58,190 nt of DNA. It comes from a virus (taxonomy: Duplodnaviria; Caudoviricetes). Below the pieces are notes generated by a model, which was given only the letters and a program-made list of their open reading frames with translations, made no database searches and had not been told where the DNA came from. Location: the IMG/VR virus record IMGVR_UViG_3300027861_000036, positions 1-58,190 of that record. One strand, given 5' to 3'. Below are positions 6,109 through 38,600 of the stretch, piece after piece; position 1 is the stretch's first letter, and each line of letters begins with the position of its first letter. A program made the translations under genes and the position numbers.

Positions 6109-6219
6109 AATATGGAGTACTTAAAAGATATATTATTTCAAAATCTTACAAAAGAAGAAGAAATAAAAATAGAAGGGGATACAAAGTATTTAATAAATAA
6201 TTCATTTAAAACCAATAAA

Positions 6220-6492
6220 ATGAAAATAATACCAATTGGTAAGAAGGTGTTGATTAAAGAACAAGAAGCACCAAAGTATTTTAAAGGTTCAACCATTTTA
6301 ATTCCTGCAACTGCTCAGGAAAAACAATATAAAGCTTATATTGTAGCTGTAGGTAAGGAAGTAGATGAAGTAATTGTAGGAGATTTAATCCAATATTCTA
6401 CTTACGCTAACCCTACAGAAATGTTTCATAATGATGAAAAACATTATCTTATTAATGTACAGGATATATTTGCAATAATTATAGATGCATAA
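6220..6492 (+). CDS. groES: GroES/Cpn10-like co-chaperonin
   Basis: MKIIPIGKKVLIK, IVAVG, VIVGDLIQY and YLINVQDIFAII match Cpn10; start placed at ATG 6220 (track start 6112 adds 36 non-homologous residues). Confidence 0.85.
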   Translation: MKIIPIGKKVLIKEQEAPKYFKGSTILIPATAQEKQYKAYIVAVGKEVDEVIVGDLIQYSTYANPTEMFHNDEKHYLINVQDIFAIIIDA

Positions 6493-12517: not shown

Positions 12518-12591
12518 AAGCCTTATATTTTTTTTAGCTATATACTATTTAAATTATTTTTTATACAAAAATATTTTAAGTTTAAAAGATA

Positions 12592-12608
12592 TAACTTTGC
12601 GTATATTA
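12592..12608 (+). promoter_or_regulatory. Putative promoter for the capsid genes
   Basis: TAACTTTG (TAnnTTTG) then CGTATATTA, about 40 nt before the scaffold-like gene. Confidence 0.4.
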
Positions 12609-12640
12609 TCTTATAATTAATTTTTAAAACCAACTATATT

Positions 12641-13897: not shown

Positions 13898-13929
13898 TTA
13901 ATTATAAACATTTTAATAAATTATCAATT

Positions 13930-15546
13930 ATGGCAACTCCGGTTTTAAATAATGGAATTTTCCTTAGGGATACTAACTATAAAGCTAGTTCACATATTGA
14001 TTCATATCACCTGACTCAAATGCTTGGGTCTGCAGAACCTATGGATATGGGACCTGTAGATTTATGGGCTATGACACAAAAGGTAGAAATGCCTTTGTAT
14101 CAAATGGCTTCTTTTGGTGGTAAGAATACAATTCTTGTGGATAATGCACGTGGTGAGTATAAATGGCAAACTCCTGTTGCACAAGATTTACCTTATATTG
14201 TTGGGGATATAGATCCAGGATTCGCAACTAAAGGTATTGACGGGCATACATTTAGGGTTAAATTATCAAAAAGATCATTTGGGCATGGTGATATTATCAC
14301 TTATGACAAATATAATGGTCTTGAACTTTACATTACAGCAGATGATATTCTACCTGCAGGTGATGGTTTTATTTACACAGTTCAACTTGTAAATAATAAT
14401 AACAATGCTTTTCTTGACAATGCTTATTTAGCTTCTGGTACTAAGTACTTCCGTAAAGGTTCTGCCAGAGGTGAGTATGGTGAAAGATTTTCTGACATCC
14501 AAACAGGATCTGGTTTCCGTGAATTCTACAACTTTGTAGGTGGTGCTGAAGCTCATGTTCATTATTCTATTTCATCTAAGGCAGACCTTATGATTAAAGG
14601 TGGTCTTAATGCTGATGGAACAGTACCTGTAACGGAAATTTGGAGAAATTTTGATACTGGAGCAAACAAATCTGTTGCAAGTATTGAAGAACTTGTTGCA
14701 GGCATGGGTAAAGCAGGTGCTAAAAAAGCATTTGACAACGGTTCTTTATCAAGAACGTTTATTACAAATCTTGAAGCGGCTCATTTATCTAAAATTGCAA
14801 ATGACATTGAGTGTTATTTAATGTGGGGTAAAGGTGGTAGAATCAAGCAAGATGGTCCTGATGATATCAGACTTTCTGTAGGTCTTTGGACACAGCTTGA
14901 TAACTCATTTAAAAGAGTGTATAACAAAGCTTCATTTAATCTTGACATGTTTAAGTCTGAACTTTATAACTTTTATCAAGGTAAAGTTGAGTTTAAAGGT
15001 CCGGATCCAAAAAGACAACTCATTGTTCAAACAGGTATTGGCGGTATGCAGTTGATTAATAAAGCTATTGCTGATGAAGTTTATGGTTCAGGTCTTGTAC
15101 AGAATGCCACTGAAATTGGGGCTGTATCTGGAAAAGGTATGGATCTTGACTTTGGATTTGCATATACAAGCTTTACAATTCCATTCCTTGCTAACGTTAA
15201 GTTTGTTCTTAATCCTGCATTTGACAACCTCCATACAAATGATATTGAGAATCCTCTTATTGATGGAAGACCTCTAAGCTCATTTAGCTTTATCATTTTT
15301 GATGTAACTGAAGAAGGTAATGATAACATTCACTTATTGAAACTATCCTGGGATAATCAACTGAAGTGGTTCTATCAAAATGGAACTATGGATTATATGG
15401 GAAGAACTCAAGGGTTTGCATCTACCGGAAACTTCAATGGCTATAGAGTTTATATGACTCAGACTATGCCAGCGATTTGGGTGAAAGATCCAACTAAAGT
15501 TTTAAAAATTGTTATGAGGAATCCTGTAACAGGAGGCTCATTCTAA
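13930..15546 (+). CDS. Major capsid protein
   Basis: 538 aa in the MCP position; YLMWGKGG, GLWTQL, VQTGIGG and IWVKDPTK resemble crAss-like MCPs; high-expression codon usage; followed by a terminator. Confidence 0.85.
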   Translation: MATPVLNNGIFLRDTNYKASSHIDSYHLTQMLGSAEPMDMGPVDLWAMTQKVEMPLYQMASFGGKNTILVDNARGEYKWQTPVAQDLPYIVGDIDPGFATKGIDGHTFRVKLSKRSFGHGDIITYDKYNGLELYITADDILPAGDGFIYTVQLVNNNNNAFLDNAYLASGTKYFRKGSARGEYGERFSDIQTGSGFREFYNFVGGAEAHVHYSISSKADLMIKGGLNADGTVPVTEIWRNFDTGANKSVASIEELVAGMGKAGAKKAFDNGSLSRTFITNLEAAHLSKIANDIECYLMWGKGGRIKQDGPDDIRLSVGLWTQLDNSFKRVYNKASFNLDMFKSELYNFYQGKVEFKGPDPKRQLIVQTGIGGMQLINKAIADEVYGSGLVQNATEIGAVSGKGMDLDFGFAYTSFTIPFLANVKFVLNPAFDNLHTNDIENPLIDGRPLSSFSFIIFDVTEEGNDNIHLLKLSWDNQLKWFYQNGTMDYMGRTQGFASTGNFNGYRVYMTQTMPAIWVKDPTKVLKIVMRNPVTGGSF

Positions 15547-15817: not shown

Positions 15818-15844
15818 CATTTTAAAATAAAAACCAACAAAATT

Positions 15845-19224: not shown

Positions 19225-19803
19225 ATGGCTGATAAACATATTTTAAGCTTAGAGGTCCCTTTAGTAACAAATTGTGAGATATTGACTATAAGAGATACAA
19301 GTCAATATACACCATTATTACCTGTAGATTGTCCTGAGTTATTAATAACAACACCGGGGTTTAACACTGCTTCACTAATTAAGTTGGATCAGTTTTTTCC
19401 TATTCAAACCTCATCTTTTGATATTAATATTTCAGCTTGCCATTTAAACTTACAAACAATAAATTGCGGGACAGAAAGATCTCCTTTACCAGATGGTGTA
19501 TACATAATTAAATATAGTGTAGCACCAAATGATAAAGTCTATGTTGAGTATAATCACTTGAGGATTACCAGTTTAATAAATATGTATTACGAAGTTTTAT
19601 GTGATATTGATTTAGATACATGTGAACCTTTTAGTGCAAGAAAAGACCTTATTGATGAACTTCAGTACATTAAAACATTAATTGATGGTGCTGTATCAAA
19701 AGTTGAATTTTGCAATAGCCCTCATTTAGGGATGGATATGTACAATTATGCATTAAAAAGATTAAACAAAATAACCTGTATGACAACAGGTTGTTGTGAG
19801 TAA
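19225..19803 (+). CDS. Virion structural protein (Ig-like N-part, helical C-part)
   Basis: LPDGVYIIKYSV beta motif; located in the structural module. Confidence 0.6.
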   Translation: MADKHILSLEVPLVTNCEILTIRDTSQYTPLLPVDCPELLITTPGFNTASLIKLDQFFPIQTSSFDINISACHLNLQTINCGTERSPLPDGVYIIKYSVAPNDKVYVEYNHLRITSLINMYYEVLCDIDLDTCEPFSARKDLIDELQYIKTLIDGAVSKVEFCNSPHLGMDMYNYALKRLNKITCMTTGCCE

Positions 19804-19813
19804 AACCAACGTT

Positions 19814-20002
19814 ATGAAATGCAAACATTGCAATAAAGGCTTTAGTTGTGGATGTCAAAAAACTAAAGCTGCTGATGGTAATATAGTGCACAAAGGTTGT
19901 GTGCGGCAATATAATGCTTCTAAAGGAATCAGGCATGTTACTAATGATACGCTGACAAATTCCATAAATAAAGCAAATTTAAATTTATCAAACAGAAGAT
20001 AA
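19814..20002 (+). CDS. Small Cys/His-rich protein
   Basis: MKCKHC....CGCQ...HKGC; ATG 19814 is preceded by AAAACCAAC (track start is a GTG at 19796). Confidence 0.65.
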   Translation: MKCKHCNKGFSCGCQKTKAADGNIVHKGCVRQYNASKGIRHVTNDTLTNSINKANLNLSNRR

Positions 20003-25137: not shown

Positions 25138-25704
25138 ATGGCATGTAATTGTAATAAATGTAATACCAGTAAAAACTGCGGATGCAATGATACTGCACTA
25201 TCAACACCATGCACATACTCTGATTGTAGTGTAGGGTCAGAAAGATGTGCAGATATACAATGTGCTGAATGTGTTAGTTATTGCGGGACTACATTTGAAG
25301 TTGGAACTCTTGGTAGTATATTAAAAATAGAGTCTGGAGAAAGACTAGATTCTATTATACAAAAATTTGCTTTAATCCTTAGTCAAGGATTAGGGGCTTG
25401 CACATCAGATGATGTGCATCATGCACCGTATAATGTATTTGCTACAAATATTACAAATAACTCAGCAACAATACAATGGAATAATGTTTCTACAGATACT
25501 CAAACTTTAACTGTAGAATATTATCAACCAATAATAGGTTGGCAAATTGCTACAAGTGGTTTGGTAAATACAACATTAAGTTATGAATTAATAACGCTTC
25601 TTCCGGCTACAACTTATAAAGTTAGAATAGTATCTTCAGATGCAAGTGTACCTACACCTCTCACATGTTCAAGTGTAGTTATAGTATTTGATACATTACT
25701 TTAG
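25138..25704 (+). CDS. Cys-rich protein with a C-terminal FN3 domain
   Basis: MACNCNKC N-terminus; APYNVFATNITNNSATIQW...LLPATTYKVRI is FN3-like. Confidence 0.75.
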   Translation: MACNCNKCNTSKNCGCNDTALSTPCTYSDCSVGSERCADIQCAECVSYCGTTFEVGTLGSILKIESGERLDSIIQKFALILSQGLGACTSDDVHHAPYNVFATNITNNSATIQWNNVSTDTQTLTVEYYQPIIGWQIATSGLVNTTLSYELITLLPATTYKVRIVSSDASVPTPLTCSSVVIVFDTLL

Positions 25705-25706
25705 AA

Positions 25707-25782
25707 AAACAACAAGGTGGTAGTTGGTTGGTTTTCTATTACTGGTTGGAGGAGTCTTGGCATCAAGGCTCCTTTGTTGTTT
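25707..25782 (+). ncRNA. Three-way-junction small RNA candidate with a UUGGUUGGUUUU loop
   Basis: Closing stem 25707-25715/25774-25782 (9 bp perfect); hairpin 25716-25723/25736-25743 (3 G.U); hairpin 25750-25759/25764-25773 (1 G.U). Confidence 0.6.
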
Positions 25783-25834
25783 ATATAAAGGAGTAAACTT
25801 TTTTAATTATTAATTTTTTTGTAAATTATACCCC

Positions 25835-26398
25835 ATGATAAATAATTATAAAGAACCGGATGTAAAAGGGCCTAGATTTAGGAATAAAAGATTAGGGTTT
25901 TTAAATACAAAAACATTTAATGAATTTAGAAAAGAATTTCCTGCATATAAGAACATTGATAATTCTAAACTAAAGAAAATCATTAAATTATACAACAAAA
26001 ACTTATGGGAAGGAGTAATAGAACATAGGGATGGTGTTGAATTACCTAATTCTTTAGGATATTTATTTATTGGTACATGTCCTCCACCAAAGAATGTAAA
26101 CACAAATTATGCATTGTCAAAACAATATGGCAAAGTACTCAGCAATAAGAATTGGGAAACAGATGGGAATATAGCAAAGATAGTTTATACAAATTGGGCT
26201 GCTAAATATAAGTTTAAACACAGAGAACTTTGGAGGTTTGAAGCATATAGAGACTTTAAAAGAACGGTTGCTAAAACATATCCTGATAACTGGACAAAGT
26301 ACATCTACATGCCAAAAAAGCATAAAATAGCTAATATGTACTATGATAAGACTGCAGAGCAAGAAGCTTTAAAAACTTATAATGAATTTGAAATCTAA
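25835..26398 (+). CDS. crAss-like IHF/HU-fold tail-module protein
   Basis: GVELPNSLGYLFI and F...RDFKRTVAK; position before the ring and muzzle genes. Confidence 0.6.
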   Translation: MINNYKEPDVKGPRFRNKRLGFLNTKTFNEFRKEFPAYKNIDNSKLKKIIKLYNKNLWEGVIEHRDGVELPNSLGYLFIGTCPPPKNVNTNYALSKQYGKVLSNKNWETDGNIAKIVYTNWAAKYKFKHRELWRFEAYRDFKRTVAKTYPDNWTKYIYMPKKHKIANMYYDKTAEQEALKTYNEFEI

Positions 26399-35681: not shown

Positions 35682-38600
35682 TGAAAAGAACTAACAGAAA
35701 AAAAGAGAGCAGAGGTTTACCAGGTGGACCACATGAACAGTTTACATATGTAACAGGTGTATTCTCACAGGATATGTATCATGTTCCTAAAGCTCAAAGT
35801 GGAATAGAGCAGCCTATTCTGTATGTAGATTCAGAAGATGATGAGAGGTATAAAAGTTATATAGACAGTTTGATACCTTTTAATGCTATGGTAAAACAAT
35901 ATAATATTGAAGGTAATGCAAGAGGTAAATCAGATTGGGAAAAAAAGACAGAACTTTATTCATCTATTAAAAACTTAGATGATTGGATGAATGCTGCTTT
36001 TGGTGGAAATCTAATGGCTAGAGATTATGATATGGGTGCTGATGATCCTACAGGTTATATTGAAGATGAATACAAAAAATTAAAAAGAAAATATCCAAAT
36101 GAACCTTTAAGATATGACTCTGAAATAGAAAGATGGACAACAAAAGATTTAAATTACAATAAAAACTATGATGAAGTTGGTGAAAATATAACACCAGAAT
36201 CTGAATTTTATAATGTCCCTTTAAATTTAAAAGATGCAATAAAAAAAGGTGAAGTAGATAAAGGTGATATAGAATTATTAAAATACTATGAGTCTTTAGG
36301 TATTCCAAACGAAAGAATAGGATATTATAATTCTCCTGACGTTTATTCTGATAAAGTAAAAGCAATAGGTAATTGGATGGGCAAAGCATGGAATCCTGTT
36401 TATCCAGAACCAAAAGTTCAGGTCAATGTTAAAGGTAAACAACCTTTAGAAAAACTTAAATTTAAAGAAATACCACAACCTGATTATAGAATACATGACT
36501 ATATGAAGATGGAAGGAATGGATCCTTCTCCAGAAAATAGAGACATGTGGGCTAAGATGCTTGGTATAAAAGATTATATAAGAACAGCAGAACAAAATGA
36601 AGAACTGATAAAGAGATTAAAAGAATACAAAAAGAATCCTATAAGAGCTCAATACGGAGGTAATATTTCTACAGAAGGTTATAAAAGAAATAGTAAAGAT
36701 GTAAATAACCCTTTTAATGTAATTATGGGTGACCCAAGTGGTACACCTATAACTATGGGAGGGGTAGACTTTGCTGTAAAGGGTGTAGACAACTTAGGTA
36801 ATGAAAAAATAATGTATCCAGGAGCAGAGTATCATTTCCCTGGTAGCATGGTTTATGAAACACCTTTTAGGAGAGCTCAAGAAGGTAATGGTGAAAAAGA
36901 AGTACAACAAATATATGATTTCAATGGTAGTAAATGGAAAATAAAAGATGGTGTTTATGAACAAGTATCTGATGACGCACCAGTAACAAATGCTCATACT
37001 ATTGATAGAAGCTCTGCTTATGCTAAAAATAAATCTGAAAGGCTTTTTAGAAATATAACACCTCAAGGCTATGGTGATCTTAAAACAAATTTAGAAAGAT
37101 ATAAAAGATATAAAGGTGATCTAGGCAGAGATAAAGAAGATGTTTTATGGCAGAGTGCAAAAGATTCTCCTACAGGAAAACCTATTTACTATAATCTTCC
37201 TAAGAGAGATGATATGTTTAGACTATATCTAGGTTTAAATCAAGAACATAATAGTTTTACTCCTCAATTAGATTATAAACCATCAAAAGCAAAAAATCCA
37301 GATGCTTTATATTGGAAGCCTAACTATTGGGATGATGAAATGAAACAGTATCTTCTTGATTATTCTCTTAATCCGATAGGGTTAAGAGATAATAAACTTG
37401 TATATGATAATAAAATTTTTAATGAAAGAAGTGATGTGTTTCTTCCTAAGTTAGAAAGTTTAGAAGCAGAAGGTATGGATTGGTCAGACCCTCAAACAGC
37501 TGAATGGGTTGCAGATAATCCATTGGGAGATTTTACTGTAACTAAAGGTGAAGATGATCATGGAAAATACATATCTATTTATGATAAAATAGATTTTAAC
37601 CCTTTTCAAACAGGAGATGGCTCATCTACTAATGCAGCAGGCAAAGCATTACAACTTTATATGAAATCTCAAGGTTATGACGTTGACGAGAATACTGAAG
37701 CCGCATCTTTATTAGGGGCTGGTAAACCCTATGAAATTTATGATAGAATCTATTATGATGATAAGACTGGTAAAATTATTAAATCACCGTTAATTAATAA
37801 ACAAAAAGGTGGCAGTAATATTCAAACACCTTTGAGGGGTGCCCAACAAGGAATAGAAGTACCAACCAAAAATCAAATAGCTAATGATCCTGAATTAATG
37901 AATTGGGATAACTATAATACACCGCTTACTAAGAAGGAACAAAAAGAATTTAAAAAATGGATGAAAGAAGCAAATATTCATCCCTGGGACAGAGGAGCTT
38001 ATGATATACAAGGGTATTGGAAAGAACAAGTTAAAGGTAAAGGTTTTGATAGTGTAGATGATGATGGGCATAGACCAGATACATATAAAAAACCAAATCA
38101 TCCTACATTTTCTATGCAATCTAAATATGCAGATCATCCAGGTGTTGAAGCAGGTTTTTGGGATGGCCCTGATTATTATGCACCATCCACACATAGAAAC
38201 TTATATGGATTAGATTATTATGACTGGATGAATTCAAGAGAGCCTGATAGACCTGAAAAGCTTGCGGGTTATATGGAGAAGCCTATTATTGTTACACCAA
38301 AACAACAAGGTGGTAGTAATATTCAAACACCTTTAAGGAGAGCTCAACTAGGAATAGAAGGTGCTAGTACTTATAACATTGGTTACAGACCTAAGTATCC
38401 TTTAAATGCTTCAGAAAGTACAAGGGTAGAACCAATTGCAATACCTACAACTGCAAATCTAAATTCATATGCGGATTTTATGAGTAGTAAAAGATTTCAT
38501 AAAGATTGGATGAGCTCTCCCATGCATATGCAAATGCTTAAAAAAAGTGCACCAGATAATTATTTAGATATTTTAAAAACAAGACTTCAAAATATTAATA

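Follow-up and report, generated by a model that had tools for sequence, protein, structure and literature searches.

A conserved hairpin joined to a terminator in uncultured marine phages, with a loop complementary to a leader box before phage start codons

What is the role of a short folded segment that follows the stop codon of a phage gene, ends in a terminator, and exposes a loop complementary to a word placed just before several start codons of the same phage? The question was raised by positions 25707-25782 of the IMG/VR record IMGVR_UViG_3300027861_000036, a linear record of 58,190 nt that is ~49% complete and that was analysed over its whole length, hereafter the window. An initial annotation of the window had proposed that this segment gives rise to a trans-acting small RNA which tunes translation of phage, and possibly host, messages. 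Nearly all long ORFs of the window lie on the plus strand, including genes for an endolysin, an exonuclease, GroES, the large terminase, the portal, a protein of 418 aa and the major capsid protein (13930-15546), together with further structural genes and three giant ORFs; no tRNA or tmRNA was found in the window. When the locus was compared by blastn and tblastn with 50,697 phage records, no match was obtained. No cultured phage has a capsid protein more than 27% identical to this one over the full length; that value is reached by a Leptolyngbya phage, and with the Cellulophaga phages phi17:2 and phi4:1 the identity is 32%, confined to one quarter of the protein. RNA-seq exists for phi14:2 (Drobysheva et al., bioRxiv 10.1101/2020.03.07.982082); its data are not transferable to the present lineage, which has no close cultured relative. 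In open-access full text covered by word searches, and in passages of the phi14:2 study, no report of a comparable phage RNA or of an AACCAA leader box was found. The window was analysed next to ten relatives, 11 genomes in all; five of the ten are complete, and the complete relatives have genomes of 112-118 kb. Gene calling in these genomes was crude: the longest ORFs beginning with ATG and reaching at least 60 aa were taken as genes, overlaps were removed greedily, and 723 starts resulted.

The segment lies on the plus strand within a gap of 130 nt between an ORF of 188 aa (25138-25704, p188) and an ORF of 187 aa (25835-26398). The p188 gene, on the same strand, codes for a protein with a Cys-rich N-terminus and an fn3-like C-terminus, the Pfam fn3 match having E = 4.8e-5, below the curated cut-off. 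A Cys-rich N-terminus is seen both in p188 (MACNCNKC...) and in a 62-aa protein encoded at 19814-20002 (MKCKHCNK...), and an fn3-like domain is also part of an upstream protein of 1261 aa. The strings on which the initial annotation was built are all present, namely the loop TTGGTTGGTTTT at 25724-25735, GGTTGG at 25744-25749, and GTTGGTTTT at 25727-25735. Folded alone, the 76 nt reach a minimum free energy (MFE) of -26.8 kcal/mol with z = -4.1, and none of 200 shuffles was as stable; in a context of 145 nt the z-score is only -1.6. From 5' to 3' on the plus strand, the element begins with an A-rich flank (25705-25715) carrying CAAC at 25710-25713, which forms the 5' strand of a helix P1 in the MFE structure. 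It is followed by a hairpin, HP1 (25716-25743), whose predicted 8-bp stem (25716-25723 with 25736-25743) carries the 12-nt loop UUGGUUGGUUUU (25724-25735), and by a linker (25744-25748) with GUUG at 25745-25748, which is the 3' strand of P1 and belongs to a second GUUGG word. The last part (25749-25782) is an intrinsic terminator by both fold and terminator scan, with an 11-bp GC-rich stem (25749-25759 with 25764-25774), a GCAU loop and then UUUGUUGUUU, so that a GC-rich stem-loop and a U-rich tract stand 3' of the stop codon on the coding strand.

The MFE structure thus consists of the 4-bp P1 helix (CAAC 25710-25713 with GUUG 25745-25748), HP1 and a separate terminator hairpin, which departs from the three-way junction first described. 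For the window, a fold of this kind is given by the centroid alone, and the MFE has no closing stem. RNAalifold likewise gives two hairpins without a closing stem; of 65 distinct elements only 37 have an A-run of at least five that could supply the 5' strand of that stem; and one clade has its stop codon right against the hairpin. GGUUGG is located at 25744-25749 as described, but it is largely paired in the MFE through CAAC/GUUG and not, as had been supposed, unpaired. The copy in the window is slightly atypical, having G at loop position 3 and an interrupted U-tract. A 19-nt exact direct repeat links its 5' flank and first hairpin arm (25706-25724) to 38299-38317, inside the coding region of an ORF of 2588 aa; the similarity ends at both edges, and the repeat may be due to chance or may be a recombination scar.

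Is this structure peculiar to one record or is it conserved? Relatives of p188 were found in 49 viral contigs at 43-86% identity, and in all 48 that have downstream DNA the element directly follows the p188 stop codon. A wider profile-based search gave 80 loci, all 80 with the element, in 64 distinct versions. A covariance model found one match with E < 1e-3 in each of the 11 genomes, and one match in each of both further complete genomes tested; no extra copy was found in the 11 genomes beyond one weak match (E = 0.68) in G004. Two records gave no match to the model, and both are fragments that end before the expected place. Stem covariation was examined in 43 distinct sequences, and 6 of the 8 HP1 pairs change on both sides, for instance as GTGATAG/CTGTCAC, GTGGTGG/CTACTAC, GGTGATAA/TTATTACC and GCAAGTGG/CTACTGC. 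In HP1 and P1 together, 90% of cells are paired against 30-62% when the partner strand is slid, and none of 500 shuffles reaches the observed value. HP1 and the terminator hairpin are predicted independently by RNAalifold, with 11 of 13 pairs compensatory.

The two hairpins are conserved in different ways. The family consensus loop of HP1, UUUGUUGGUUUU, a U/G loop on a stem of 7-8 bp, is almost invariant despite p188 identities down to 43%; the variants found are UUGGUUGGUUUU in the window, UUCGUUGGUUUG, UUGUUGGUUUG, UUUGUUGGUUCU, UUUGUUGGUUAC, UUUGUUGGUAUAU and UUUUGUUUGGUUUU, besides a few length variants. The terminator stem in relatives differs in sequence yet pairs, with compensatory changes at all of its 6 pairs and a T-run after it. 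A crude script accepted 56 of 65 distinct relatives as terminators; the nine that it flagged, the window's included, had been misparsed at T-runs inside the loop, and by eye eight of these nine, again including the window's, are a clean hairpin with a T-run, the tail of L268 being T-poor. Both strands of P1 (YAAC on the 5' side, GTTG on the 3' side) are present in 57 of 65 distinct elements, neither in six and one in two. Since the sequence of P1 is mostly constant, covariation speaks neither for nor against this helix, which as a modelled structure is plausible. An H-type pseudoknot between a 5' CAACAA and UUGUUG of the loop was considered as a defining feature and rejected; it is possible in the main clade only, CAACAA being missing in the stop-abutting clade and in L255, L268 and L318. 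With compensatory pairs across divergent homologues and a syntenic position, the hairpin is a genuine RNA structure, conserved and with a near-invariant loop. It belongs to no described RNA family. A search of the whole window with Rfam 15 gave no family at its gathering threshold, and at E <= 10 the region 25600-25900 gave four chance-level matches only, none of them to C4.

Downstream of the element a further set of signals was observed. On the plus strand at 25811-25834, before the 187-aa gene, lies a conserved T-run with a GTAAATTATA box, of which the window holds a single exact copy. A T-run with a GTAAATTATAA box stands ~10-15 nt before the ATG of this gene in 79 of the 80 relatives listed, L003 being the one without it, and in most relatives a short covarying terminator hairpin with a AAATTTCAT-like conserved loop precedes it. 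The T-run box is probably an expression signal (promoter or leader) of the 187-aa gene and marks the next transcription unit. Most relatives also carry an extra gene of ~1.3 kb between the element and the 187-aa gene (e.g. L094, 2150-3500), with an N-terminus like M..LK.K..ESLKWKK...YCA. The window does not have this gene, and neither do G007, G008 and G010.

The possible partner of the loop is a box in front of phage genes. As reported at the outset, AAAACCAAC occurs at 12626, 15830 and 19802, with 6, 6 and 3 nt separating it from the ATGs of 12641, 15845 and 19814, and AAAACCAAT occurs at 6208, separated by 3 nt from the GroES ATG at 6220. The latter start is sound, since the PHROG match to the longer, mechanically called ORF (6112-6492) sets in only at its residue 37 and Pfam Cpn10 spans residues 2-87 of the protein read from 6220. 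All four boxes are on the plus strand. The box at 12626-12634 precedes the 418-aa gene next to the major capsid gene and is found in 11 of 11 orthologues (predicted duplex with the loop, -12.4 kcal/mol); for the box at 15830-15838, before the 338-aa gene, AAACCAA is found in 11 of 11 orthologues (-10.5 kcal/mol); the box at 19802-19810, before the 62-aa Cys-rich gene, recurs in 8 of 11 orthologue leaders (-10.6 kcal/mol); and the variant box at 6208-6216, before the phage GroES (Cpn10) gene, recurs in 4 of 9 (-8.8 kcal/mol). None of the 11 genomes has the box in front of the capsid gene, p188 or p187, and none of the 10 in which a start of p357 could be read (G004 gave no ATG) has it in front of that gene. 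The capsid gene has a different conserved leader, ...AACAATCAATT before the ATG, in the window (13900-13929) and in orthologues. Between the capsid gene and the 338-aa gene, most relatives carry a terminator-like palindrome, TGTACATAATTATGTAC, with TTTTGAG behind it; the sequence of the window differs there.

The box is enriched and its position is fixed. The window has 10 copies of AAAACCAAY where 2.9 are expected, a count that none of 100 shuffles reaches, and four of the eight plus-strand copies stand directly before start codons. Enrichment of the leader motif, proposed earlier as a check, was borne out among the relatives: AAACCAA was found 44 times in the 22 nt before the 723 starts, 17.8-fold over genome background, and is the sole non-A/T word among the 25 commonest 7-mers before starts. 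Within 40 nt of starts there are 55 AACCAA words, 42 of which end 4-8 nt before the ATG. Minus-strand genes bear the box as well, in 14 of 281 cases, and a few phages (L243, L245, L251) have two or three AACCAA boxes in tandem. In 46 distinct leaders of the 418-aa gene the distance from box to ATG is fixed, whereas the distance from the box to a TATATTGTATATATA-like upstream box varies from ~2 to ~25 nt; a fixed spacing to the ATG together with a variable spacing to the promoter-like box argues for a role at the level of mRNA rather than as a promoter. In G001-type phages the box follows the promoter-like box by 2 nt, and there it may not lie fully inside the mRNA. A conserved TATATT(G/A)TATAT(A/G)TA box was observed upstream of the 418-aa gene (12590-12625 in the window) at variable distance from the leader box, and is a candidate late promoter element; a promoter-family search of the window with two conserved upstream boxes gave nothing above chance. 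The leader box itself may simply be a translation-enhancing word.

The leaders around these boxes are of a particular kind. In line with what the initial annotation said of Bacteroidota, they lack Shine-Dalgarno (SD) sequences, GGAG standing before 1.7% of starts against 3.9% in the background, and they are A-rich, with A peaking at -13 to -11 (62-66%) and at -3 (64%). In Flavobacterium johnsoniae, A-12 and A-13 stimulate translation, near protein S1, according to Baez et al. 2019 (PMC6847099). The leader pattern found here matches this Flavobacterium type, and at the usual spacing of 6 nt the AAAA of the box occupies -14 to -11 and so overlaps the F. johnsoniae-type A determinant. These leader statistics point to a Bacteroidota host. 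The element was also found in two bacterial MAG records, one of Flavobacteriales (L335) and one of Pseudomonadales (L336); the latter is a contig of 114.7 kb, a whole phage genome binned into the MAG, and both records are binning associations, not host proof. A Pseudomonadales host is argued against because the leaders are SD-poor. An SD-like pairing of the box with 16S rRNA was considered and rejected, as the 16S of the Flavobacteriales MAG, itself a binning association, has no TTGGTT and its 3' tail ends in ...GGCTGGAACACCTCCTTT; the idea that the loop mimics rRNA is unsupported for the same lack of TTGGTT. The 16S of the Pseudomonadales MAG has one GTTGGTT at about position 1416. The host targets that had been envisaged are not supported, since GroES is a gene of the phage itself, with conservation in 9 of 11 relatives.

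How closely do loop and box correspond? The complement of the consensus loop is AAAACCAACAAA, and in 34 of 38 distinct leaders of the 418-aa gene a perfect complement of at least 10 nt was found, being 10, 11 and 12 nt long in 9, 19 and 6 leaders, respectively. Within one and the same genome, loop and leader match over 8-12 nt in all 11 genomes. In random intergenic 12-mers of these genomes, TTGGTTTT has a frequency of 0.0017. When the loop was paired in silico with 33 start regions of the window, the four boxed starts were the four best, the next reaching -7.8 kcal/mol. No phage with the box and without the element was found among the complete genomes, which leaves no natural 'knock-out' for comparison. 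A conserved seed and conserved complementary sites at translation-initiation regions, as are looked for in a small regulatory RNA, are thus both present. The energies are to be read with the base composition in mind: the pairing is largely an A-run against a U-run, cheap at 33% GC, with CCAAC:GUUGG as the only specific core, and ~1% of 40-nt windows on the plus strand reach -10.7 kcal/mol, the level of the weaker targets.

No signal of co-variation between the two partners was obtained. In a rank test on 15 distinct loop/leader sets, the duplex energy of each loop with its own leaders was compared with that for the leaders of other phages, and the own 338-aa and 62-aa leaders ranked 1, 8, 8, 4, 2, 3, 12, 6, 12, 14, 11, 15, 13, 2 and 3 out of 15, a test whose power is limited by the rarity of loop variation. 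In G007 and G008 the loop variants cut the match to their own 418-aa-gene leader to 8 nt, from 10 and 12 nt respectively, uncompensated. Compensatory-looking cases are only G006, with CCAAA in the leader and UUUGG in the loop (8 to 9 nt), and L318, with an extra upstream GTAACCAAT box.

Based on these findings, a base-pairing RNA derived from a 3' end, which would mask the leader box, is tentatively put forward as the best reading, at somewhat less than even probability. The element would form the 3' end of a late structural-gene block, and late transcripts would end at its terminator. A stable 3' piece of ~70-80 nt, made of hairpin and terminator, would then persist as a 3'-end-derived small RNA and accumulate as late transcription proceeds. 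Its loop UUUGUUGGUUUU would base-pair with the AAAACCAAC(AA) box 4-8 nt upstream of a few phage starts, the prime candidate target being the 418-aa gene beside the capsid gene, with the 338-aa gene, the 62-aa gene and, in some phages, GroES as other candidates. Such pairing would mask the A-tract (-14 to -11) used by the SD-blind ribosomes of Bacteroidia, and translation would be lowered or timed. It is from the sequences that we infer a discrete RNA, its pairing in vivo and the direction of its effect. A bolder version, which is very doubtful, holds that box and loop make up a translation code private to this phage lineage, with the RNA as a surrogate 'anti-leader' in trans. The same proposal, in the equally doubtful part that concerns its action, has the RNA bridging boxed late mRNAs to the ribosome or switching head-assembly genes on or off.

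Several other explanations have to be weighed against a masking RNA. The hairpin could be a recognition module for a protein or enzyme, set on a terminator, such as a site for a phage or host RNA-binding protein, a signal that directs RNase processing or stabilizes the 3' end, or an element that modulates termination, its complementarity to the leader box then being coincidental. Protein-binding hairpins, too, are marked by an unchanging loop on a covarying stem, GUUGG occurs twice (in loop and linker), the hairpin is fused to the terminator in every genome, and the rank test shows no co-variation of loop and leader, loop variants being rare. This explanation is rather unlikely, since it leaves unexplained both the complement of 10-12 nt in 34 of 38 leaders of the 418-aa gene and the fact that the sole non-A/T word among the top 25 7-mers is the loop complement, and no candidate protein was identified for it. 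Pairing could also take place in cis: long late mRNAs, boxed at 12626, 15830 and 19802, would pair the 5' leader with their own 3' loop and so close the message, affecting its stability or ribosome recycling, with no free small RNA involved. The layout would allow it, as all three boxed structural genes share the strand of the element and precede it, no opposite-strand gene intervenes, and the element is the first strong terminator-like site on the plus strand after 20000. The distances, however, are 6-13 kb, terminator-like hairpins lie between some of these genes (in relatives downstream of the capsid gene, in the window upstream of 19802), boxed genes occur on the opposite strand as well (14 of 281) and GroES lies in another block, all of which make pairing in cis quite improbable.

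The remaining explanations fare worse. That the element is an ordinary tandem-hairpin terminator, devoid of sequence-specific function, agrees with its position after a stop codon, its GC-rich hairpin and its U-tract; it is highly doubtful given that terminator stems drift freely whereas the 12-nt loop of HP1 is essentially fixed across 64 distinct versions, and fixed while the flanking protein is 43-76% identical. The occurrence of the same 9-mer on both strands might suggest that a regulator of the phage recognizes AAAACCAAC as double-stranded DNA and that the loop carries the same site in opposite orientation. The box keeps its distance to the ATG and not to the promoter-like box, and the inverted copy sits in the loop of a covarying hairpin, which is meaningful only when single-stranded, so a DNA site is very unlikely indeed. 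Least probable of all, and barely credible, is a small peptide from GTG 25717 (about V-V/I-V-C-W-F-S...). An in-frame start does exist in 62 of 64 distinct versions (the rare start GTG in 57, ATG in 4, TTG in 1), with an A-rich leader just upstream. Against it, third codon positions show no excess of variation (mean column entropy 0.82, 0.71 and 0.73 for positions 1, 2 and 3), the would-be wobble positions in the loop never vary, stem changes are non-synonymous yet preserve base pairs, the would-be peptides measure anything between 11 and 44 aa and end in unrelated C-termini, and a start codon is missing from 2 of the 64 versions. A small protein-coding ORF was rejected on codon-position entropy and on the variable start, stop and length.

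The masking RNA tentatively preferred here can be set beside known systems. CpxQ, SdhX and DapZ are bacterial base-pairing sRNAs derived from 3' UTRs, which share the terminator of their mRNA. Like them, the element directly follows a stop codon, ends in the gene's own intrinsic terminator and carries a conserved single-stranded seed upstream of the terminator hairpin, and the proposed targets are translation-initiation regions. It differs in being encoded by a phage, in having a non-SD box as its target, in being known from sequence alone, and in the form of its seed, which is an apical loop instead of a 5' single strand. To our knowledge, no Hfq-type system exists in the likely host phylum. 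The antisense RNAs c4 of phages P1 and P7 and CI of P4 (Rfam C4) are cut from a leader and control immunity. They too are short stem-loop RNAs of a phage operon whose loops pair with ribosome-binding regions of the phage's own genes, but the present element has no sequence or structure match to Rfam C4 and lies at the 3' end of a lytic-type structural module.

Its 3' half resembles any intrinsic (Rho-independent) terminator, with a GC-rich stem, a 4-nt loop and a U-tract, conserved in function and not in sequence; unlike such terminators, it has an extra upstream hairpin with an invariant loop. The best Rfam match is the Bacteroides sRNA GibS (RF04182), from a host phylum similar to the one that the leaders point to. 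Membership in that family was rejected, the match scoring 18 bits against a gathering score of 115 at a chance-level E of 2.9. For pairing in cis, the closest likeness is to the BTE-type 3' cap-independent translation elements of plant RNA viruses such as BYDV, which kiss a 5'-UTR loop and recruit initiation factors. There, too, a 3'-terminal hairpin loop is complementary to the 5' leader of the same message; the BTE-type elements differ in belonging to eukaryotic RNA viruses and in recruiting initiation factors.

Regulatory RNAs in phages of Bacteroidota-type hosts are almost unknown, and how translation is tuned without SD sequences is an open question. The locus offers a testable pair, a single-copy hairpin with a fixed 12-nt loop and a box at a fixed position over the A-tract, both partners being conserved across ~100 uncultured marine phage contigs examined. 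Under the very doubtful 'anti-leader' proposal, switching would be tied to the accumulation of late-operon 3' ends in a host that ignores SD sequences, and the RNA, if that were true, would be an RNA-based, SD-independent selector of start sites. If the pairing is not real, the hairpin is still a new conserved RNA motif in need of a ligand. If it is real, these phages would provide a compact model for translational control independent of SD sequences and for regulators derived from 3' ends in lytic phages.
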